A stretch of DNA of 41,249 nucleotides from positions 1 through 41,249 of the forward strand of contig JBDGSJ010000012.1 of assembly GCA_042217585.1 (NCBI GenBank). The letters are read 5' to 3'. Of the stretch, positions 14,960 to 26,579 are shown one piece after another. The stretch comes from Candidatus Nanohaloarchaea archaeon. Its GTDB lineage: Archaea; Nanohalarchaeota; Nanosalinia; Nanosalinales; Nanosalinaceae. The position numbers and the translations under genes are program-made. Numbering within the stretch: position 1 is the first letter of the stretch; the number at the start of each line of letters is the position of its first letter. Below the pieces are notes generated by a model that ran no database searches, had not been told where the DNA came from, and saw only the letters and a list, made by a program, of their open reading frames with translations.

Positions 14960-15460
14960 TCAGTTTGTGGTTATCGAGAGTCCTGAAGGTGCTGAAGGTG
15001 GAGAGGTCGCTCCCATATCGATGGAGGAGGTCACAGATCCCGAGACCTCCTGGTTGCTCAGTCCTCCTATCTGGTCGTACTCGATGTTGATTGAAAAGCT
15101 GTTACAGCCGAACATACCCGCCTGCCTGAACTGGACGTTCTCTACTGTGAACTCTTCCGAGTCCGCGACAGGTATCATCTTCCCCTCCCACGAAGACGCA
15201 TTCCTGCCGTTCCCGTTCAGTACCTCTATCCGGGTGACGTTGACCGGTTCTCCGGCTCCGTTCCTGAGTATGAACTGGAGGTGTCCATCCGTGTTCACCC
15301 CGAACTGTGCTATCTGGACCGCCTCTCCCCCGAAGCCCATGCTGGATTTCTGGCACTGGCCCTGGCTGAAGGCGAAGAAGGCGGCGCCGACGACGGCCAC
15401 TACCACGAGCATCCATCCGTAAGACATCAGGTACTCTATGGCTGACTGTCCCTTCTTCAT
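14960..15460 (-). CDS. Archaeal type IV pilin-like protein (class III signal peptide) with C-terminal PPSAPSGL tail
   Basis: MKKG|QSAIEYLMSYGW with E at +5, followed by a hydrophobic helix; 4-bp overlap with upstream adhesin. Confidence 0.88.
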   Translation of the reverse strand: MKKGQSAIEYLMSYGWMLVVVAVVGAAFFAFSQGQCQKSSMGFGGEAVQIAQFGVNTDGHLQFILRNGAGEPVNVTRIEVLNGNGRNASSWEGKMIPVADSEEFTVENVQFRQAGMFGCNSFSINIEYDQIGGLSNQEVSGSVTSSIDMGATSPPSAPSGLSITTN

Positions 15461-18400
15461 CTGCTGATCACCCCGCAGTCCTGGACGGATGAACTGCCTG
15501 CTCCGTTGAACGCCGTCACGTTGAAGCAGACGTAGTCGCCGTCCTTTATGTTCAGGGCGTTGTAGCTGAAGGACTTCTCGTTGGGACCTGTGGATCCCAC
15601 CTTCCTGAAGGAGCCTGTCGAATTAGTGTAGACCCTGAACCCGTTCTCGTTGTTCGATCTGTCCTTCCACGAGAGATCTATCACTATGCCGCCGTACTTC
15701 ACCCTGAAGATTTTTTCCGCGGACCTGGTCACGTCTCCGTTGCTCTGAGTGACCGTCAGGAAGCCTCTGAAGGTCTGTGGAAGTTTGCCTGACCTGTAGT
15801 CGTATCTGAGCACTCCGGCAGTCCCGTTCTCGATATCCGTCACCACTTTCCTCGACTTCATCACCTCGCTGTCGTAGTATGTCAGGTTGAACCTGGTCAG
15901 TTTCGGGGACCTGTCGTTGTTTGTTGACATCGAGACCCGGTATTTCAGGAACCTGGTCTGCGGGACGCTGTCTATATCGGAGTGAGAGATCCATGTCCCG
16001 GAGCTGTTCTCTAGGAAGCTGACTGAAAGACCTGTGCCAGCTGGCTCTACAGTCTCGGTCCTTACCTGTCTGGGGTCGAACTTCTGGCTGTCGCTCAGGA
16101 CCGGTGAGGTGTAGGTGCCCGAGTCCTCGTACCTGAGCCTGTAAAACCTGTCCGATGGTATGACCTGGAAGCTTGATTCGCCGGGCCTCTTCCACGCGAC
16201 GGACACACCGCTTCCTCCGGTATGTTCCTGTACCCGGACCCTGAAGGTGTGGTATCCTTTATCGAGCTGTATCGTATCGCTGTGGACGTAACTTCCCGAG
16301 ACACCGTGACCTCCGTACCAGGAGACGGCTCTTTTCCCGTCGATGAATACGTCTGATGCGTCGTCGGAGTCTATTCCTATGGTGTAGGTCCCTGACTCCG
16401 GTGCGTACAGGTAACCGGATGCCTTCCACGAGAAATGGTCTCCCGGCAGGTAAGATGGCTTCGCGTTCCAGCCTCCGCCGCTCTGCCAGTGGACGGAACC
16501 CGAGTGGTTCCCGGTTCCCTGGAGAGAGACACCGCTCCTCGAAGGGTTGAAGAACTTGTCCATGGCGTCCTCGCTGTCCGCGTAGTTGTCCTCCTGGTTC
16601 AGGCCCTGGGTTTCATACCACCGGTAGGCCAGCTTTCCCTGTGCACCCACAGATGACTCGAGTCTCAGGTCCCCTGCCGAGATCTCCGTGCCCGAGAGGG
16701 TCCCTGAGTTCCAGTCATCGCCGTCGCTGAAAGTCCAGTTAAGGACCTTGCCGGTGCTGTTGAAGTGGAGGGCCACGTCGTAGCAACCATACCTGCTGTA
16801 GCATTCAGGTCTGAAGCTGAAGTTCACCGGGTTCCTGGTGGAGTTCCGGTCCGCGGGGCTGGTCCAGTCTATCGTGGGCGAGGGGAAGTCTTTCGGCCTG
16901 ACCGTGATGTTCCGGGCGTAGGACCTGTTTGTCGTGCCATCCTGTTCTGTTACCTTTATCGCCCACCTGAACGTGGACGGGAGGGAGTAGCTTGAGAAAT
17001 CGTAGGTTATGCTGTTGGTCTGGCCGCTGTCTACGTTCGATACGGTCTTCATCTCCCTGAACCTGGTCTGAGTGTTGGCATAAGATAGGTTTACCTTTCT
17101 CACTGTCGGGGTCTTCAGGTTGTCCGATGTCTCGAGATGTGCCCTGAACCTGAGGAACCTGGACGCAGGCACGTCATCGAGCGATTCGTTGTATATCCAT
17201 GTACCTGAGCTGTTATGCCCGAAGTCGATGTCATAACTCGTTGAGGCTCCGGTTGAACCGGTTACCCGGGAGTTCCTCCAGTCCACATCCCTCGCCGCGG
17301 CGAAAGTTCTGGATGTGTAGTTGCCTGAATCAGGGTAGACCCGTGGATAGTATCTTGTCGAAGGTATGACCTGGAAGCTTGATTCGCCGGGCCTTATCCA
17401 GGCGACAGACACGCCATCTCCTCCGGTGTCCTCCTGCATGCGGACCCTGAACCGGTGGAAGCCCTTCGAGAGCGTTATCTGGCCGCTGTGGCCGTAGCTT
17501 CCCGAGGTCCCGTGCGGTCCGTAGTACGATGCGACCCTGTTCCCGTCGATGAATACGTCTGATGCGTCGTCGGAGTCTATTCCTATGGTGTAGGTCCCTG
17601 ACTCCGGTGCGTACAGGTAACCGGATGCCTCCCAGGAGTAATGCTCGGAGGACAGGTAGGATGGTTTTGCGTCCCATGAACTGCTGTGCCAGTGGACCCT
17701 TCCCGAGTGGATTCCCTCGCCACCTCTGCTGACCCCGTTGGTTCCGGGATCTGTGAACATGTCCATCTCCTCCTCATCGTTCGCGTAGCCGTTGACCTGG
17801 TTCAGCTCTGAGGTGTCGTACCAGTGATACCTGAGTCTTCCCTGCTGGCCCGGTACGGATCTGCTCAGGGAGATACCGCCGTTTTCTACGGTCGTGTTCC
17901 GGACCTCGCCTGTGCTCCACTCGTCCCCGGAGTCCGTCACCCAGTGGAAAACGCTGTTGGTGGGCAGGCTGTACTTCACCGAGATGGAACGGACCTCGGG
18001 GGCCTGGTAGACATCACCCGTTGATAGGGTCACGTTGAGCTTTATCCTCTCCGTCTGCGGCACCTCCTCTATGCTCTCGTGGTAGGTCCAGCCGTTCTTC
18101 CCCTTGCTGGCGTAGTCCACATCCACCGACGTACCGGAGGGAGTCAGAGCCTTCACCTCTGCCGATCTCCAGTAGGCCGGGGCCCTTACGGTTTTTGGCT
18201 CTGTCTCATAGCTTCCTGGGCTCTGGAACTCCATGCTGGCGTTCGCGTAGCGATCATCAGGTATAACTTTGAAATCTGATTCCCCAGGTTTCTTCCAGGC
18301 GAGAGAGACTCCGTCCTGCCCTCCTCCCTCCTCCATCCTTACCTTTATCGGGTGCCATCCCCTGGAGAGGGTTATCTGGCCGCTGTGGCCGTAGCCGCCT

Positions 18401-19029
18401 GCCACTGCGTGTCCCCCGTACCACGAGGCGATTTTCTGTCCTTCTACGAATACGTCTGATGCGTCGTCGGAGTCTATTCCTATGGTGTAGGTCCCTGACT
18501 CCGGTGCGTATATGTAGCCCTCGGCTTTCCACGAGTAACCTCCGGAGGGGAGATAGGAGGGTTTCTCGTCCCAACCGGCATCGTACCAGTGTATCCTCCT
18601 CTGGAACATGCCCGTGCCGCCGAACTCCACCCCCGGCTTCGAAGTATTGAAGAACTGGTCGAACTGTTCCTCCGTTTCAGGATGGCCGTTCTCGCTGTAG
18701 TAGGTCCCGGTATCGTACCAGGTATAGTTCAGGTTCTCCTTCGCCCCCGTGCTCTTCAGTGTCAGGTTCCCGGAATCTGTCTTAACGGCGTTACGGTCAC
18801 CTTCTTTCCACGAGCTGGTCTCCCAGGAGAGAGTAAGGTTGCCGGTCGTGTTGAACATCAGGCTGGCCGTACTGCATCCTGAACCACACTCAGGTTTGAA
18901 ACTGAATGTCACAGGGTTCTCTACATCAGCGTCCTCCGCCGGGGGACCTACCTGGACGATAGGGAGAGACAACCCGGAAAACGTCAGCAGAAGTACACAG
19001 AGGGGGAGAAAGATGTTTTTCTTCTCCAT
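15457..19029 (-). CDS. Large secreted adhesin/lectin: three PA14 domains, Ig-like domains and a C-terminal FN3-like domain
   Basis: Sec-type signal peptide; three copies of W.A.GY.YAPESGTYTIGIDSDDASDVF...GH...L.KG.H...VR.(Q/E)E..G..G..(L/V)AW..PG; C-terminal IDLSWKDRSNNENGFRVY...VTAFNGAGSS. Confidence 0.88.
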   Translation of the reverse strand: MEKKNIFLPLCVLLLTFSGLSLPIVQVGPPAEDADVENPVTFSFKPECGSGCSTASLMFNTTGNLTLSWETSSWKEGDRNAVKTDSGNLTLKSTGAKENLNYTWYDTGTYYSENGHPETEEQFDQFFNTSKPGVEFGGTGMFQRRIHWYDAGWDEKPSYLPSGGYSWKAEGYIYAPESGTYTIGIDSDDASDVFVEGQKIASWYGGHAVAGGYGHSGQITLSRGWHPIKVRMEEGGGQDGVSLAWKKPGESDFKVIPDDRYANASMEFQSPGSYETEPKTVRAPAYWRSAEVKALTPSGTSVDVDYASKGKNGWTYHESIEEVPQTERIKLNVTLSTGDVYQAPEVRSISVKYSLPTNSVFHWVTDSGDEWSTGEVRNTTVENGGISLSRSVPGQQGRLRYHWYDTSELNQVNGYANDEEEMDMFTDPGTNGVSRGGEGIHSGRVHWHSSSWDAKPSYLSSEHYSWEASGYLYAPESGTYTIGIDSDDASDVFIDGNRVASYYGPHGTSGSYGHSGQITLSKGFHRFRVRMQEDTGGDGVSVAWIRPGESSFQVIPSTRYYPRVYPDSGNYTSRTFAAARDVDWRNSRVTGSTGASTSYDIDFGHNSSGTWIYNESLDDVPASRFLRFRAHLETSDNLKTPTVRKVNLSYANTQTRFREMKTVSNVDSGQTNSITYDFSSYSLPSTFRWAIKVTEQDGTTNRSYARNITVRPKDFPSPTIDWTSPADRNSTRNPVNFSFRPECYSRYGCYDVALHFNSTGKVLNWTFSDGDDWNSGTLSGTEISAGDLRLESSVGAQGKLAYRWYETQGLNQEDNYADSEDAMDKFFNPSRSGVSLQGTGNHSGSVHWQSGGGWNAKPSYLPGDHFSWKASGYLYAPESGTYTIGIDSDDASDVFIDGKRAVSWYGGHGVSGSYVHSDTIQLDKGYHTFRVRVQEHTGGSGVSVAWKRPGESSFQVIPSDRFYRLRYEDSGTYTSPVLSDSQKFDPRQVRTETVEPAGTGLSVSFLENSSGTWISHSDIDSVPQTRFLKYRVSMSTNNDRSPKLTRFNLTYYDSEVMKSRKVVTDIENGTAGVLRYDYRSGKLPQTFRGFLTVTQSNGDVTRSAEKIFRVKYGGIVIDLSWKDRSNNENGFRVYTNSTGSFRKVGSTGPNEKSFSYNALNIKDGDYVCFNVTAFNGAGSSSVQDCGVISR
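16334..16424. repeat. Intragenic exact repeat in the C-terminal PA14 (91 bp identical to 17540-17630)
   Basis: Direct comparison of TTCCCGTCGATGAATACG...CCGGATGCCT. Confidence 0.9.
17540..17630. repeat. Intragenic exact repeat in the middle PA14
   Basis: Identical to 16334-16424. Confidence 0.9.
18448..18510. repeat. Intragenic exact repeat in the N-terminal PA14 (63-bp core common to all three copies)
   Basis: GAATACGTCTGATGCG...CCGGTGCGTA is identical in all three copies. Confidence 0.9.
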
Positions 19030-20581: not shown

Positions 20582-22768
20582 TCACTCCTCTATGCTCGGG
20601 AGTTCCTCCTTCATGCCCTTGCGCTCCCTGATCTCCAGGATCTTCTCCTCCTGGAGGTTCTTGTCGATGGGCTCGAAGACGACGTCCTTCGGGTTGAAGA
20701 ACCCTTTGCCGTTGGTGGCTGACTTGAGGTCCGCCTCGAACCCGAACATCTCGGCGACCGGGACCTTGCACTGGATTATGGAGGAGTCTCCCTCCTCTTC
20801 CATGTTCATGACGTCTCCTCTCCTGTTGGAGACCTCCGTCATCGCCGATCCCATCGTGTCGCTCGGCGTATCGATCCTGATTATCCTGACAGGTTCGATG
20901 AGCTCCGGACGGGAGTTGAGGAACCCTCTCCTCATCGCGTCCTTCGTGGCCGGTATCATCTGTGCCGGTCCACGGTGGATGGCGTCCTCGTGGAGCTTCG
21001 CGTCGTGGAGCTTGACCTTGAGACCTATCACGGGCTCGTTTGCCAGCGGTCCCTCGTCGCAGAACTCGTGGAACGCGTCGACGAGGTACTCCTCGATCTC
21101 TCTGAGGTTCTTGATACCTCTGGAGGCGTTTACGAACATGTTCTCCTCGTATACGTCCATGATGTTGTCCGCCTCGTCCTTATCCATCCCTGCCTCGACG
21201 AGTGCGTCACGGACCTCGGTCTCGTCGTCCGCCTGCATCTTGAGGTCCTCGTACTCATCCTTCAGGAACTTCCTGACCTCCTCGTCGATGGGCTCGACCG
21301 AGATCTCAAGCTTGTTGTGCCTGTTCGGGGATTTCCCGACGTAGACATCGCTCTCGTCCTGTATTCCCTCTCTGAAGACGACGATCGGCTCGGAGACGTG
21401 TATGTCGATGCCCTTCTCCTCGAGGTGTCTCTCGACCTTTGCCTCGATGTGCAGCTCTCCGAGTCCGGAGACCAGGGTCTCTCCCGTCTCCTCGTCGATG
21501 TCCACCTTGATGGTGTTGTCCTCCTTCGCTCGCTTCCTGAGCTCCTCGATCAGCTTCGGGAGGTCCGAAGTGTTCTTCGGCTCGATGGACTTGGTAACCA
21601 CGGGCTCGAAGACGTGCTCGATCTGCTCGAACGGCTGGATCTCGTCCTCTCCCTTCAGGATGAAAGTCTCTCCCGTGGAGAAGTCAGGTCCTGTTATCGC
21701 GGTGATGTTGCCCGCGGGGACCGAGTCGACGGTGAGCTTTCGCGGTCCGGAGTAGATGCCGACCTGCTGGGCCCGCTCCTCCTTGTGGGAGCCGATCCCG
21801 TAGAGCTCGTCTCCCTCCTCGACCGTTCCGGAGAACAGTCTCGCGGTCGCGATCGTGCCGGCGTGCTCGTCGTCCTCTACGTTCGTGACGACACCGACCA
21901 GGGGTCCGTCGGCGTCCTGGTTGGCCATGGACTCACCTACCTCGCTGTCGGGGTCGCCGGGCCATACCTTGGGTATCCTGTAATCTGCGGCCTCCCGCGG
22001 GTTCACCAGGTGCTTGACGACCATGTCCAGGACCACTTCCTCGATCGGTGCGTCCTCTGCAAGGCCCTCATGGTCGCCATCGTTCACCCTGTCGATTATC
22101 TCCTCGAAGGAGATCCCTGTCTCCTGCATGAAAGGCATTGAGATCGCCCAGTTCTTCAGTGCGGAGCCGAAGGCGACCGTGCCGTCTTCTACTCCCATCT
22201 TCCATTCTTCCGCGGTCTCATTGTCCGCGTACTTTCTCAGGGCGGTGTTGACTTCTCTTATTATCTTCTTGAACCTTTTCTGCATTTCCTCCGGGGTGAG
22301 CTGCATCTCCTCGATCAGCCTGTCGACCTTGTTGATGAACAGGACCGGCTTGACTCCCTCGTTCAGCGCCTGTTTCATGACGGTCTCTGTCTGTGGCATG
22401 ACGCCGTCGACTGCGTCGACGAGGACCACTACTCCGTCGACAGCCCTCATAGCTCTTGTCACGTCTCCTCCGAAGTCGACGTGGCCGGGTGTGTCGATGA
22501 GGTTGATCAGGTAGTCGTCTCCGTCGAACTCGTGGACCATCGAGATGTTTGCGGAGTAGATCGTGATTCCACGCTCCGCTTCCTGGTCGTCGAAGTCCAT
22601 GAACCTCTGTTCTCCGGCGAGCTTGTCGGATATCATGCCCGCACGTGCGAGGAGGTTGTCAGTTAGTGTAGTTTTTCCGTGGTCGATATGCGCCGCTATA
22701 GCAATGTTTCTGATGTGCTCGGGGTCGTTGATGACCTCTTTAATCGCATCAAGCTCTTTGTCAGACAT
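20582..22768 (-). CDS. fusA: Translation elongation factor EF-2
   Basis: AHIDHGKTT, ERGITI, DTPGHVDF, NKVD; diphthamide loop HEDAIHRGPAQ. Confidence 0.98.
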   Translation of the reverse strand: MSDKELDAIKEVINDPEHIRNIAIAAHIDHGKTTLTDNLLARAGMISDKLAGEQRFMDFDDQEAERGITIYSANISMVHEFDGDDYLINLIDTPGHVDFGGDVTRAMRAVDGVVVLVDAVDGVMPQTETVMKQALNEGVKPVLFINKVDRLIEEMQLTPEEMQKRFKKIIREVNTALRKYADNETAEEWKMGVEDGTVAFGSALKNWAISMPFMQETGISFEEIIDRVNDGDHEGLAEDAPIEEVVLDMVVKHLVNPREAADYRIPKVWPGDPDSEVGESMANQDADGPLVGVVTNVEDDEHAGTIATARLFSGTVEEGDELYGIGSHKEERAQQVGIYSGPRKLTVDSVPAGNITAITGPDFSTGETFILKGEDEIQPFEQIEHVFEPVVTKSIEPKNTSDLPKLIEELRKRAKEDNTIKVDIDEETGETLVSGLGELHIEAKVERHLEEKGIDIHVSEPIVVFREGIQDESDVYVGKSPNRHNKLEISVEPIDEEVRKFLKDEYEDLKMQADDETEVRDALVEAGMDKDEADNIMDVYEENMFVNASRGIKNLREIEEYLVDAFHEFCDEGPLANEPVIGLKVKLHDAKLHEDAIHRGPAQMIPATKDAMRRGFLNSRPELIEPVRIIRIDTPSDTMGSAMTEVSNRRGDVMNMEEEGDSSIIQCKVPVAEMFGFEADLKSATNGKGFFNPKDVVFEPIDKNLQEEKILEIRERKGMKEELPSIEE

Positions 22769-22893
22769 CTTCAGTTTTCACCAGGTTCTATGTCTAACGA
22801 ACCGGTTACAAGTTTTAAAAGGCCTCCCGAGACCAGCCGGTCCTTTCGTCGAATGATTTTAATCCGTCGACCCGCAAACCTTTCTGTGAAAAG

Positions 22894-23880
22894 ATGAAGA
22901 CCCGTTTCATAGGTCCATACTCCTCCGGCAAGACGACGATAATCAACCTGCTGAAGGAGGCGACTGACCTCTCCACGGACCCCACACCTGTTTACGAGGA
23001 CCAGGGGGAAGTCGAGCTTTCGTTCCTCGGCGAGGTGGAGGAGGAGTCGCTGGACCTCGTCCCGGATGAGAAGGTCCCCATCACCGAACTCGGGGGTCAG
23101 GAGAAGTTCTGGGAGAAGCACAGGGAGGACTCTGACAAGTTCACGGCTGACGTGGACCTGATCGTGGGAGTCTTCGACCTGAAGGACCCGGAGGACCCTG
23201 AGAGGTACGGGGAGATGCTTGAATCCTACAGTTCCTACATCGAGAGCTTCCTCGAATCCGCGGAAGAACTTGACAGGGATATAGACTGGGGATTCCTCAT
23301 GAACAGGGTGGAGAGAGGAGAACTTAACAGCGAAAAGTACTCGGAGCGGAGAGAGATGATCGAGCAGATGCTGGAGGAGGCCTTCTCGGATTACGACGAT
23401 GGATACATGCTCGAGACCGTGTACGACATGAACCCGAGGTCCGCGCGCAGGGCGTTCTTCAACATATATCTCGAGAGCGCCGGCAGGGAGGACGTCGTCG
23501 ACGGTCTCTGCGAGAAGATATCGGAGAACGTACAGGCCCAGCAGGTATCAATAATGAACAGCGAGGGAGTGACACTGGGAAGATATCCGCCCGATGAGTC
23601 ATCCCTGGGAGAGGAACTCGAGGGCATAGGAGAGCTCATGAAGGCCTTCCCGGCTGACCGGAGGGACTTCGCCATCTTCTCCCAGGTCGGCGACCTGTCC
23701 AGCTCCTACCTAAGGCCCTCAAGCGACATGAACTACGATCTCGTGGTGAGGACCGAGGTCAACGGGGAACAGCTCCTGATACTGGTAAGGACCGACATGA
23801 GAGTGGGTGCGGTCCTCCTGAGGATCCAGGGGATAAAGGAGAACATAAGAGAGATAATGGAGGACTTTCTCGAGGAGTGA
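22894..23880 (+). CDS. Ras-superfamily small GTPase (Rag/Gtr-like) fused to a C-terminal roadblock-like domain
   Basis: G1 GPYSSGKTT, G3-like ELGGQEKF, LIVGVFDL, G4-like FLMNRVE, ETVYD; C-terminal VSIMNSEGVTLG...LLILVRTDMRVGAVLLRI. Confidence 0.72.
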   Translation: MKTRFIGPYSSGKTTIINLLKEATDLSTDPTPVYEDQGEVELSFLGEVEEESLDLVPDEKVPITELGGQEKFWEKHREDSDKFTADVDLIVGVFDLKDPEDPERYGEMLESYSSYIESFLESAEELDRDIDWGFLMNRVERGELNSEKYSERREMIEQMLEEAFSDYDDGYMLETVYDMNPRSARRAFFNIYLESAGREDVVDGLCEKISENVQAQQVSIMNSEGVTLGRYPPDESSLGEELEGIGELMKAFPADRRDFAIFSQVGDLSSSYLRPSSDMNYDLVVRTEVNGEQLLILVRTDMRVGAVLLRIQGIKENIREIMEDFLEE

Positions 23881-23896
23881 AAACAGGGTCCGGTCG

Positions 23897-24520
23897 TTAC
23901 CGGGCGCCCTCTGCCTCTCTTTCCCTTCTCTCCTTCTCGCGGACCGCTCTTATGTCCTCGTCGCCGTTGCTGGCGCTGATAAGTTCCTGTGCGAGGACCT
24001 CTGCGGCCGAGTTGTCTTCGGCAAGCCTCTTCTCGTATGCTCCCTGTGCGAGAAGTCTGAGGGCGAGGTCGACCCTTCTCTGGGGGGCCACGAGTACTGC
24101 TTTCCTGGCTCGGACTCCACCTCTCTGGTAGGTGACGACCTCTTCGACCGGGGCGGAGTTCTCGATCGCGTCGACGAGGACCTGGATGGGGTTCTCGCCG
24201 GTCTCCTCCTCGATCATCTCGAAAGTTTCTTCGATCATGTTCCAGAGTTTCTCGGAGTCCCCGGTGTTATGTCCGGAGCTGATGTAGTGTTTCTTTCCGC
24301 GGTGTCCCGCGACGTAAAGCTTGTTGAGAAGTCTCTCGACTATCGGTACGTCTGCCTTGTAGAACTGTTTCTCGCTGTGCCTTCCCTTGGACCGTGGGGC
24401 GAGGATGTTCTCCAGGTTGATGTACCTGACGAGTCCTTCATCGTTTATATCTGCCTCGTCCGCATCCCATCTTCCAAGGGTCTTCAGTTCGTCTTCAAGT
24501 TCAAGTTTGGCATCGCTCAT
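23897..24520 (-). CDS. rps7: 30S ribosomal protein uS7
   Basis: PIVERLLNKL, ENPIQVLVDAIENSAP, PQRRVDLALR. Confidence 0.97.
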   Translation of the reverse strand: MSDAKLELEDELKTLGRWDADEADINDEGLVRYINLENILAPRSKGRHSEKQFYKADVPIVERLLNKLYVAGHRGKKHYISSGHNTGDSEKLWNMIEETFEMIEEETGENPIQVLVDAIENSAPVEEVVTYQRGGVRARKAVLVAPQRRVDLALRLLAQGAYEKRLAEDNSAAEVLAQELISASNGDEDIRAVREKERREREAEGAR

Positions 24521-24995: not shown

Positions 24996-26579
24996 TCAGC
25001 GGTAGAACCAGAACACCATCAGGGCCGCTGCTATCTCCAGCGCACCCAGTAGGAAGAGGTATCTGTCGGGCACGACCGGGGCCATAAGTATGCCCGAGGA
25101 AATCAGCAGCGCGGCGGTCACGGTCTGGTTCATCGACCTCGAGTTCTCGTTCACGACCCGGACCTCGGTCTTTTTCTTCTCCGTCAGTTCGTCCAGCTTG
25201 GACGGCAGCTCGGTCACGAGGTCCTCGTTCTCAAGCAGGTCTATCGCGAACCGGTCCGCCATCTTCTCGGGGCTGTGCTGTTCGTAGAGCACCTTCTTGA
25301 TCTCCCTCGCGTAGGTGTCCTTCATCTGGAGCCCGGGATGCAGGTCCATCGCCACTCCCTCCATGGTCACCATGGTCTTCAGCATCAGGATGTACGAGGA
25401 AGGTATCCTGAGGCCGTGGCGGGAGGCGAAGACGAGCAGTTCGAATATGTTCTGCGTGAAGCTCTCCTCCTCGAGTGTCGCGTCCCTGAGGACCAGTATC
25501 TTCTCCTCGACCTTCTCCTTTATCAGTCCGCGGTCCGCCTCGTCCTCGAGGCTTCCTATCTCCTCCAGCAGCCCGGTCACGGATTCGACGTCCTCGTTCG
25601 CGGCGTGAACGATCAGCAGGCCTATCCTCTTCCTCTGCTCCGGTGTCAGCTTTCCCATCATCCCGAAGTCGAGGTATATCAGTCTTCCCTCGCCGTCTAT
25701 CAGAAAGTTCGATGGATGCGGGTCCGCGTGGAAGAAGCCGTCCCGGATTATCTGTTTTATCGAGGACCTCGCCATCGTGTCGGCTATCCTGTCCCCCTCT
25801 ACGTCCATCTCCCTGAGTCCCTCCTCGTCGTCGCACTCCACGCCTTCAACGTACTCCATCACCATGACCTTTTCCGTGCTCATCTCGGAGTAAACGTACG
25901 GTATTCTGATATCCTCGTCGTCCTTCATGTTCTCCCTGAATATCCGTGCGTTGCGCGCCTCCTTCTTCAGGTCCAGTTCTTCTCTCGTCCATCTGGCGAA
26001 CTCCCTGACGTTCCTGCTGACGTTGAAGTCATTCAGGCCCTGGAACTGCTCGTCGGCACGGTCAGCGAAGAACTGAAGTATGTCCAGGTCCCGCTCCACC
26101 TCCTGCTTTATCCCCGGCCTCCTTATCTTGACTGCGACCTCCTTCCCGTTCTTCAGTTCGGCCCTGTGGACCTGTGCTATCGAGGCCGAACCTATCGGGT
26201 CCTCCTGGAACTCCGAGAAGTTTTCCTCCACCGGTCCGAGCTCCTTCTCCAGTATCTCCCGGGCCTTCTCCGGACTGAAGCTCTCGACAGATTCCTCCAG
26301 CTCCTTCAGTTCGGCGGCGTACTCCTCCGGTATCAGGTCCGGCCGCTCCGCCAGTATCTGGCCGAACTTTATGAAGGAGGGACCGAGTTCTTCGAGGAGT
26401 TCCCGCAGTCTCTCAGGGGGAGGGGTATCATCCGTCTCCGGAAGGATCCTTTTCGCAATCGGAAGCCGGTTGTCGAGGTCCAGGGCGTCCAGCAGAAAAT
26501 TGAAGCCCTCCTCTGAGGCCTTCCTTACTATCTCGTCCAGCCTCTTGACATCCTCGACCCTTTCCTCGACTATATCCAT
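24996..26579 (-). CDS. ABC1/UbiB (AarF) family atypical protein kinase with C-terminal TM helices
   Basis: LGPSFIKFGQ, SASIAQVH, VAVKIRRP, GFFHADPHPSN, LDFGMMG. Confidence 0.93.
   Translation of the reverse strand: MDIVEERVEDVKRLDEIVRKASEEGFNFLLDALDLDNRLPIAKRILPETDDTPPPERLRELLEELGPSFIKFGQILAERPDLIPEEYAAELKELEESVESFSPEKAREILEKELGPVEENFSEFQEDPIGSASIAQVHRAELKNGKEVAVKIRRPGIKQEVERDLDILQFFADRADEQFQGLNDFNVSRNVREFARWTREELDLKKEARNARIFRENMKDDEDIRIPYVYSEMSTEKVMVMEYVEGVECDDEEGLREMDVEGDRIADTMARSSIKQIIRDGFFHADPHPSNFLIDGEGRLIYLDFGMMGKLTPEQRKRIGLLIVHAANEDVESVTGLLEEIGSLEDEADRGLIKEKVEEKILVLRDATLEEESFTQNIFELLVFASRHGLRIPSSYILMLKTMVTMEGVAMDLHPGLQMKDTYAREIKKVLYEQHSPEKMADRFAIDLLENEDLVTELPSKLDELTEKKKTEVRVVNENSRSMNQTVTAALLISSGILMAPVVPDRYLFLLGALEIAAALMVFWFYR

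Follow-up and report, generated by a model that had tools for sequence, protein, structure and literature searches.

The stretch of DNA analysed here in full (41,249 nucleotides; 'the window'), i.e. contig JBDGSJ010000012.1 of the Candidatus Nanohaloarchaea archaeon assembly GCA_042217585.1, carries an open reading frame (ORF) at 22894-23880 on the forward strand, with an ATG start and a product of 328 amino acids (aa), P0001, which according to structure prediction almost certainly joins a Rag/Gtr-type G domain to a C-terminal roadblock domain. Because both G4 and G5, on which canonical membership of the family depends, are replaced, we file P0001 as a Rag-derived variant and not as a canonical Rag. 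Five nanohaloarchaeal Rag-like sequences are on record, in three 90 % clusters: the host genome (G000) harbours two, P0001 and a 48 % identical paralog on another contig (C30), and a second genome of the same family (G040) harbours a copy at the same site as P0001. In G000 (C30) and in G040 a Rag-like gene is followed by a gene for a longin-like domain fused to a major facilitator superfamily (MFS) fold, and the two together look like a sensor-switch module. Our proposal, held with about as much doubt as confidence, is that these proteins form a Rag-type switch from an Asgard-type donor, with a longin-MFS partner, relaxed base specificity and regulation by the membrane partner.

Domain architecture and family identity

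An earlier note on this DNA, made from the sequence alone, had proposed a Rag/Gtr-like GTPase-roadblock fusion, and all motifs quoted there are present in the ORF: GPYSSGKTT (residues 7-15), ELGGQEKF (65-72), FLMNRVE (134-140), FTADVDLIVGVFDL, ETVYD...RRAFFNI, VSIMNSEGVTLG and the C-terminal LLILVRTDM... stretch. The proposal itself is borne out by two structure predictions, profile-profile alignment and a Pfam Gtr1_RagA match to the paralog. P0001 has its own model in the ESM Atlas, with a TM score of 0.74 over 289 residues (1-328) to a Promethearchaeota Gtr1_RagA cluster versus 0.59-0.65 to eukaryotic Rag clusters, and with feature scores of 0.96 for Promethearchaeota Gtr1_RagA clusters and 0.91-0.93 for the eukaryotic ones. 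The second model, by AlphaFold2 (AF2), was based on an alignment of 51 rows, 46 of them Asgard-type, and had a predicted local distance difference test (pLDDT) value of 74.8. With this model a Foldseek search, as the earlier note had suggested, placed LokiRagO (8yl2) first (E 8e-14), followed by Gtr/Rag chains; among the matches listed, ranks 1-39 were Rag/Gtr/LokiRag, with Arf1 from rank 40. By VIA, Z was 19.8 for both RagC and LokiRagO 8yl2 (275 residues aligned, root-mean-square deviation 4.1/4.7), while the G domain alone gave a tie between Arl2-type CIN4 (Z 17.4) and RagD (Z 16.6). In residues 198-328 of the model, DSSP assigned the order helix-strand-strand-helix-strand-strand-strand-helix, i.e. 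that of a roadblock domain. The roadblock-like C-terminal domain of the earlier note thus stands on element order and superposition, its size being corrected from ~120 to ~130 aa.

The families that could have displaced this assignment fit less well. SRP (signal recognition particle) receptor beta has an N-terminal membrane anchor before a single G domain; the first strand of P0001 begins at residue 3, with no N-terminal membrane anchor, and Z was 14.0 over 160 residues. For MglA, a stand-alone G domain with a separate roadblock GTPase-activating protein (GAP), MglB, Z was 12.8 over 157 residues, and in P0001 the two parts form one fused ORF. Both values lie well below those for Rag. GPN-loop GTPases are defined by a Gly-Pro-Asn loop motif, and P0001 has no GPN tripeptide and no PF03029 among its Pfam matches; the VIA top 50 contained no GPN-type structure, though this does not amount to an exclusion. 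Grouping with any of these three families, which the earlier note had named as evidence against itself, was therefore not seen.

On its own, P0001 had no Pfam family above cut-off, with Gtr1_RagA not listed and no Robl_LC7 match, and PDB sequence searches with P0001 or with a nanohaloarchaeal-only profile gave chance matches only. The C30 paralog did match Pfam Gtr1_RagA, at 26.4 bits (cut-off 22). A profile of the three nanohaloarchaeal clusters, run against 1.84 billion representatives, returned its own cluster and two weak matches (E 5e-4 and 7e-4), both Arf/Gtr1_RagA-type proteins and one of them named Helarchaeota. When these two were added, the profile gave 114 matches, of which those named by taxon were Helarchaeota, Lokiarchaeota, Promethearchaeota and Hodarchaeota and, in the case of one partial protein, Desulfobacterales. 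Ten relatives have the layout of a G domain plus a C-domain; the best Pfam family is Gtr1_RagA in 10/10, one cluster member is named Promethearchaeota, and hhalign of these ten G-roadblock relatives with the nanohaloarchaeal profile gave a probability of 98 over query columns 2-234. A profile of these ten Asgard-type proteins, with no nanohaloarchaeal row, matched P0001 at 48.0 bits (E 4.6e-13) and the C30 paralog at 36.2 bits, the only two matches among 8373 six-frame peptides of G000, and its best match in 201 control genomes of an unrelated bacterial phylum reached 25.3 bits; the match to P0001 thus exceeds chance.

Nucleotide-binding motifs

Judging from the alignment, the phosphate-handling half of the G domain is conserved and the base-reading half is replaced (Table 1). 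In G4, the nanohaloarchaeal sequences show NRVE (four) or NQLT (the C30 paralog), versus HKxD in 46/46 aligned relatives; across the 112 Asgard-type matches, [HN]KxD occurs in 111, the exception being a 152-aa sequence with a dissimilar C-terminus. In G5, all five have been changed to an E-x-V-Y consensus, compared with a T-[ST]-I-[YF] consensus in the relatives, whose aligned rows read T/S-[ST]-[IV]. The distance from G1 to G3 is 51-54 residues versus 40-47 (median 42) in 46 relatives, which corresponds to an insertion of ~11 residues after switch I. The first residue of G3, Glu in P0001, is Asp in 108 and Glu in four of the 112 matches. The earlier note had called both G3 and G4 unusual; this holds for G4, not for G3, and the replaced G5 and the insertion are to be added. 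Four Asgard-type GTPases, P0011, P0074, P0094 and P0114, combine the G3 Glu with an intact G4.

The copies in the window and in G040 are 65 % identical overall, i.e. 75 % in the G domain and 49 % in the roadblock domain. For the G domain of this pair, the non-synonymous and synonymous divergences (dN and dS) are 0.19 and 1.65, and for rps7 0.14 and 1.67; the P0001 gene is under purifying selection.

The Lys/Thr of G1, the Thr of switch I and the Gln of G3 would still bind Mg-NTP and sense the gamma-phosphate, while the replaced G4 and G5 would weaken or remove guanine selection, leaving a nucleotide switch of relaxed base specificity. Going by these motifs, P0001 is probably no longer strictly GTP-specific. 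Relaxed specificity is the reading we prefer, given that G1-G3 do not vary and that the G domain, under purifying selection, has diverged less than the roadblock domain. A precedent is described in the available text on Era and SpoIVA, where changes in G4/G5 switched specificity between GTP and ATP (PMC7952092).

A pseudo-GTPase scaffold would need no nucleotide cycling at all: the Rag fold would be kept to provide the membrane partner with a fixed adaptor, the window copy being a partnerless duplicate retained for a structural role. The simultaneous replacement of G4 and G5, which took different forms in the paralogs (NRVE and NQLT), the Asp to Glu change in G3 and a Lys at the finger position of the partner (see below) all agree with it, as does the pseudo-GTPase AAGAB, in which loss of G motifs including G4/G5 accompanies loss of nucleotide binding, as far as the available text goes (PMC12490416). 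We nevertheless regard the scaffold as unlikely, given that G1 Lys-Thr, Thr31 and Gln69 do not vary even between copies with no more than 48 % identity and that the excess conservation of the G domain is the pattern expected if phosphate binding is selected. At the other extreme, the protein may be an ordinary GTP/GDP switch that works like the Asgard Rag-like GTPases, NRxE being a conservative, salt-shaped G4. An N-basic-x-acidic G4 is indeed present in four of the five sequences, the whole protein is acid-shifted like the proteins of its host, and the G3 Glu also occurs in relatives that keep [HN]KxD. This is improbable, however, as NQLT of the C30 paralog lacks the basic residue as well as the acidic one, no copy has retained the G5 of the relatives and the G4 Asp is invariant in the 46 aligned relatives.

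A longin-like/MFS partner gene

On C30 of G000 and on contig C46 of G040, the Rag-like gene is followed by a partner ORF of 558-565 aa, with overlapping stop and start on C30 and a distance of 6 nt in G040. The partner is 47 % identical between the two contigs and single-copy in G000, and its N-domain was found in the same 2/70 genomes of the phylum as the Rag-like gene, bar one weak 30-residue match. A third pair of relatives, P0002 and P0008, both list the same 8398-bp longest contig. The window copy has no adjacent partner gene.

The C-domain of the partner (residues 180-555) is a predicted MFS-fold membrane domain: MFS structures fill both the Foldseek and the VIA lists (best Z 18.0, 306 residues aligned), and the model has 12 helical segments, in line with the two-bundle fold of 12 helices that defines the superfamily, with 11 peaks by hydropathy. 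Pfam MFS_1 matched weakly (E 3e-4), below cut-off. For the N-domain, residues 1-165 gave TM scores (by target) of 0.80 and 0.85 to Promethearchaeota clusters of 154 and 164 aa. Its model runs strand-strand-helix-strands-helix-helix, a longin-like order, at a pLDDT of 42, and a GP motif (G15-P16) between strands 1 and 2 is unchanged throughout the partner copies and the four Asgard-type longins aligned with them. With these four the N-domain is colinear in the GP motif, helix 1, an MKG in place of xRG, and K-[GA]-[FL]-Y in helix 2. The Arg finger is absent: Lys68, invariant in three partner sequences, aligns with the Arg of xRG, which we infer to be the finger from the available text of PMC12290439. 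To judge from its predicted structure and the order of its motifs, the N-domain is likely to be a longin domain, though the sequence statistics are marginal.

The same text describes a GP motif together with an Arg finger as the hallmark of catalytic longins in the GAP complexes FLCN, GATOR1 and CSW and reports both in Asgard longins, for which it leaves open whether Rag or ArfR is the partner (PMC12290439). To place the partner N-domain, we surveyed 80 Asgard-type Rag loci with 804 ORFs, which are related to each other and not independent. The four best scores of the partner N-domain among the 804 ORFs were all GP-motif longins, each of them weak (E 0.08-0.8). Within 10 kb, a longin ORF was present at 25/80 loci and at 17/28 of those longer than 8 kb; within 500 nt, at 5 of 80. 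The counts are based on 30 ORFs, three of 33 candidates having been dropped on inspection, and 24/30 are fused to a G1 motif. A Folliculin Pfam match of these neighbour longins stayed below cut-off. A first iterative longin profile had drifted into GTPase domains and was discarded.

Some of these loci deserve mention in their own right. L061, L064, L072, L078 and L086 each carry two different longin-GTPase fusion genes near the G-roadblock gene, both with GP, one with and one without the xRG finger motif, recalling catalytic/non-catalytic longin pairs such as FLCN/FNIP. At L103:5179-9593, a tandem pair of G-roadblock genes is immediately followed by a longer gene that is open at the contig end (755 aa visible) and encodes a longin, a G domain and a second longin-like domain, i.e. 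an operon-like Rag pair plus longin. According to the available parts of two sources, MK-D1 has G-roadblock and longin-G-roadblock proteins, with an operon pair predicted to heterodimerise (PMC10933270), and NPRL2-like longins of Asgard archaea are fused to two-component domains (10.1101/2020.10.19.343400).

Proposed mechanism

In the proposed switch, the 12-helix MFS domain of the partner would carry or sense a solute, and the signal would be passed by the cytoplasmic GP-motif longin-like domain to the Rag-like G domain, on which it would act in the way that FLCN/NPRL2 longins do on Rags. Given the Lys at the finger position, the partner longin may be a weak GAP, a guanine nucleotide exchange factor or a docking platform. 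The roadblock domains would dimerise, and the window copy may rely in trans on the partner encoded on C30, form a pair with its C30 paralog, like RagA with RagC, or do both. The window copy has lost its partner yet keeps a TATA-like box and is under selection, and we take this to mean that it would act with the C30 partner in trans or as a heterodimer with the C30 paralog; a profile search found no further roadblock or longin protein in G000. A complex prediction for the C30 G domain with two partner N-domains, GTP and Mg gave a median of 0.13, the mark being 0.32, and was not used as evidence.

Several points weigh against this proposal. The combined change of G4, G5 and the Arg finger of the partner is just as compatible with a dead enzyme. 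The AF2 model of the GTPase is not independent of the Asgard-type family, which supplied 46/51 rows of its alignment, yet the ESM Atlas model, which does not lean on that alignment, agrees with it. For the partner N-domain, the pLDDT is as low as given above, the matched Promethearchaeota clusters carry no family name, and there was no longin match in Pfam or the PDB; hhalign against all 33 collected longins gave a probability of 0.1, against a three-sequence subfamily E 0.05, with 1/100 column shuffles scoring higher, and E 0.001 only with a five-sequence set chosen afterwards. The relatedness of the 80 Asgard-type loci belongs here too, and at least two predicted membrane helices were found in 0/30 of the Asgard-type longin ORFs, so that a longin-MFS fusion is unseen in any putative donor. 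Concerning the origin, no donor was found: in the G-domain tree the nanohaloarchaeal clade has a stem of 2.24 substitutions per site and lies in a polytomy, and neither eukaryotic Rags nor MglA were among the rows of the tree. The tree also roots the clade with the C30 and G040 copies as sisters (100/86), in conflict with the orthology of the window and G040 copies implied by identity (65 % versus 48-49 %) and synteny.

Distribution and origin

A profile search found the Rag-like gene in 2/70 genomes of the phylum, and in 1/28 of those at least 90 % complete; in the other 68/70 the nanohaloarchaeal profile found nothing. Six further matches, all weak and confined to profile positions 14-74, were taken for generic P-loop matches and left out of the count. 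The PF04670 family search missed the G000 copies and gave weak matches in two other genomes (open frames of 432 and 465 aa). The nanohaloarchaeal profiles also found nothing in metagenome and viral contigs, nor in plasmids, and a profile scan of genome contigs brought up a single true locus, besides a weak clostridial match that was rejected. On viral contigs, the Asgard-type profile found three Arf-like genes, which were taken as outgroup; their contigs, L121, L122 and L123, are of giant-virus type and carry ordinary Arf/Arl GTPases.

As to the synteny suggested as a check by the earlier note, the G040 copy occupies the same rps7/EF-2 site, divergent from EF-2, its contig and the rps7 contig sharing an overlap of 55 nt, and the two-gene module has been lost from the window copy. 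Recent transfer between G000 and G040 was rejected, since saturation at synonymous sites equals that of rps7. When the 30 genomes with the best rps7 matches were placed in an rps12+rps7 tree, both carriers fell inside a supported 9-genome subclade without being sisters (approximately unbiased test, p 0.003), and the two congeners of G040, one a single-contig genome, are without the Rag-like gene. Either an old gain followed by several losses or old movement within the subclade would explain this distribution.

In a 70-row G-domain tree, the nanohaloarchaeal clade is separate from the three viral Arf rows and joins Asgard-type sequences in an open polytomy. By path, though without support, its closest row is P0011, from a cluster named Helarchaeota. 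The gene probably came from an Asgard-type source by lateral transfer together with its partner gene; an Asgard-type donor is the best reading of its origin. Alternatively, the gene might derive from the Rag of a halophilic eukaryote, or go back to early archaea and have disappeared from most DPANN lineages. In favour of this, human RagC and LokiRagO receive the same Z by VIA, the source is obscured by the long stem, and eukaryotic Rag rows are missing from the tree. Such an origin is nonetheless quite improbable: the Atlas features and TM scores favour Asgard clusters (0.96/0.74 versus 0.93/0.65), the Asgard-type profile detects P0001 at 48 bits where Pfam Gtr1_RagA does not list it (a biased comparison, since the rows of that profile had been found by a search seeded with the nanohaloarchaeal proteins), the partner N-domain matches Promethearchaeota clusters, and the position of both carriers in one 9-genome subclade among the 30 closest genomes points to gain and not to deep inheritance.

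Locus, composition and neighbouring genes

The P0001 gene lies on the strand opposite to rps7 and EF-2, 125 bp from the start of the latter and 16 bp from the stop of the former, and overlaps neither (Table 1). The antisense position between these genes reported in the earlier note is thus correct, but it is no sign of a link to translation. Of 29 other rps7 loci, 19 show EF-2 after 96-1132 nt, in nine cases at no more than 315 nt and in ten at 561 nt or above; at eight, ~1.5 kb of sequence is without an EF-2 start, and the remaining two stop at the edge of a contig. Thirteen inspected gaps contain varied unrelated ORFs, which by their motifs we take to be haloacid dehalogenase-like, small membrane, Zn-ribbon and other proteins. 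The interval (window 22769-23896; L012-L040) is hypervariable across this family, from 96 nt to more than 1.5 kb. The position is an insertion hotspot without functional meaning; given the varied insertions it is uninformative about translation, and a functional link based on gene position was rejected.

Table 1. Features of the Rag-like gene P0001, its surroundings in the window and the linked gene pairs
Feature	Position	Strand	Basis or remark
Rag-like protein gene P0001: G domain + C-terminal roadblock	22894..23880	+	ORF, fold, hhalign to Asgard-type G-roadblock profile
G domain, Ras superfamily, residues 1-196, closest to Rag/Asgard RagGtr	22894..23481	+	
G1 P-loop GPYSSGKTT, residues 7-15, intact GxxxxGK[ST]	22912..22938	+	Invariant in five nanohaloarchaeal sequences
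G2, switch-I Pro30-Thr31	22981..22986	+	Invariant in 51/51 aligned sequences
Lengthened switch-I/interswitch, residues 32-58	22987..23067	+	Partly conserved in all copies; low pLDDT
G3 ELGGQE, residues 65-70	23086..23103	+	Asp to Glu; catalytic-type Gln69 kept
Degenerate G4 NRVE, residues 137-140	23302..23313	+	NQLT in C30 paralog
Degenerate G5 ETVY, residues 174-177	23413..23424	+	Sequence alignment
Roadblock domain, residues 198-328	23485..23877	+	DSSP on model; whole-length superposition; Atlas model
TATA-like TTTTAA, putative own promoter	22857..22862	+	37 nt before ATG
EF-2, divergent neighbour	20582..22768	-	Pfam; arrangement also in G040
rps7 (uS7), convergent neighbour	23897..24520	-	Pfam PF00177, E 2.6e-29
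Gap to rps7 stop (16 bp), no partner remnant	23881..23896	.	G040 has longin-like/MFS gene and two further ORFs here
Second Rag-like gene + longin-like/MFS fusion gene, same order	G000:C30:235-2894 (L006); L004:850-3540		

TATA-like boxes similar to that of P0001 occur at -28 at the C30 copy and at -35 at the G040 copy. The halophilic DPANN setting recognised in the earlier note agrees with a host genome of 0.98 Mb (38 contigs, 89.7 % complete, 0.3 % contaminated) and with 23 % Asp+Glu in P0001, versus 13-16 % in 10 Asgard-type relatives. GC content at third codon positions is 0.79, the values for EF-2 of the host being 0.82 and 22 % Asp+Glu; the composition is host-like, i.e. the gene is ameliorated.

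Two sequencing runs, X1 and X2, both from one study and possibly the source sample, support the assembly. In X2, one contig with two differences spans 22659-24316 (EF-2 start, gene and rps7) at a depth of 9.7, versus 9.5-9.9 for near-identical flanking contigs. In X1, the gene is bridged into rps7 by one contig (22966-24620), while a second (22541-22916) takes in the EF-2 start, the intergenic region and the first 23 bases of the gene. An assembly chimera or contamination is ruled out by the spanning contig at flank depth together with the host-like composition. Contig C30 was checked by composition (tetranucleotide distance rank 31/82 chunks) and by its neighbour gene, which has 49 % identical homologs in 4/20 relatives.

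Elsewhere in the window, an ABC1/UbiB atypical kinase (24996-26579, minus strand; Pfam E 6e-78) is encoded between NusA and rps12, with a homolog in the 3.6-kb rps7 loci of 17/30 genomes. Another ORF, of 1190 aa (15457-19029, minus strand), looks secreted and has three repeated modules, presumably PA14-like.

Significance

Our full-text literature searches, with supplements and subscription papers outside their scope, listed no paper that by its title or abstract describes a longin or a Rag-like protein from Nanohaloarchaeota or elsewhere in DPANN, nor one on a longin-MFS fusion. The sources at hand, as far as their available text goes, treat Rag GTPases as eukaryotic and Asgard proteins, with eukaryotes nested among Asgard relatives in the RagGtr clade (10.1101/2024.02.28.582541). 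For a Rag-derived variant, the host is unexpected and the partner architecture undescribed. A selected, ameliorated copy in a 1-Mb nanohaloarchaeon means that other archaea, too, can gain or keep such signature proteins and that these remain of use to them. With only two Rag-like proteins and one longin-like domain found by profiles, the latter encoded next to a Rag-like gene, G000 offers a testable two-component system for the Rag-versus-ArfR question, and the natural G4/G5 variant offers a test of base specificity in the Rag family. The longin-MFS fusion suggests a wiring of solute sensing to a Rag switch without lysosomes. It is tempting to speculate further that a reduced DPANN symbiont lineage captured a two-gene module, an Asgard-derived Rag with a GP-longin-MFS transceptor, salt-adapted it, rewired it off guanine and duplicated it in a RagA/RagC-like manner. 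This full scenario is doubtful; if it is true, the module would be a minimal prokaryotic counterpart of the lysosomal circuit of Rag, FLCN-GATOR1 and transporter-sensor, and the conserved linkage of its genes would be direct genomic evidence of GP-motif longins having Rag-type GTPases, and not those of ArfR type, as their partners in archaea.

Comparison with known systems

The closest known proteins are the Asgard Rag-like G-roadblock proteins (8yl2 LokiRagO, 8zla/9m28 LokiRagM), the best full-length structural and profile match, which share with P0001 the G domain plus roadblock in 300-330 aa, the P-T of switch I, the xGGQE of G3 and GP-motif longins nearby or fused. In contrast to them, P0001 has replaced the HKxD of G4 and the TSI of G5, carries ~11 extra residues, is acid-shifted, resides in a nanohaloarchaeal host and is only 17-21 % identical to 10 G-roadblock relatives; the nanohaloarchaeal longin is fused to an MFS fold and not to a GTPase. 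The eukaryotic RagA/B-RagC/D pair (Gtr1-Gtr2) has the same two-domain fold and likewise two divergent paralogs per genome. In the nanohaloarchaeal system, unlike the eukaryotic one, the finger Arg is Lys and the membrane sensor is fused to the longin-like domain. SLC38A9, the membrane sensor of eukaryotic Rags, is a separate protein of APC (amino acid-polyamine-organocation) fold. A linked longin-like domain with a GP motif recalls FLCN-FNIP/GATOR1 as described in the available text of PMC12290439.

Bacterial MglA/MglB also combine a small GTPase with a roadblock domain, in separate genes there and fused in P0001. ArvA, a small GTPase of Halobacteria and DPANN including Nanohaloarchaeota (PMC10927574, available text), occurs in the same phylum and is widespread, whereas the profile of the Rag-like gene found nothing in 68/70 genomes of the phylum; the two are set apart here by distribution, not by sequence comparison. 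SpoIVA, a TRAFAC GTPase turned ATPase, resembles P0001 in keeping G1-G3 with altered G4/G5, but it is Era-derived and unrelated in architecture, with NSxR and SxE, as given in the available text (PMC7952092), where the nanohaloarchaeal proteins have NRxE and ExVY.

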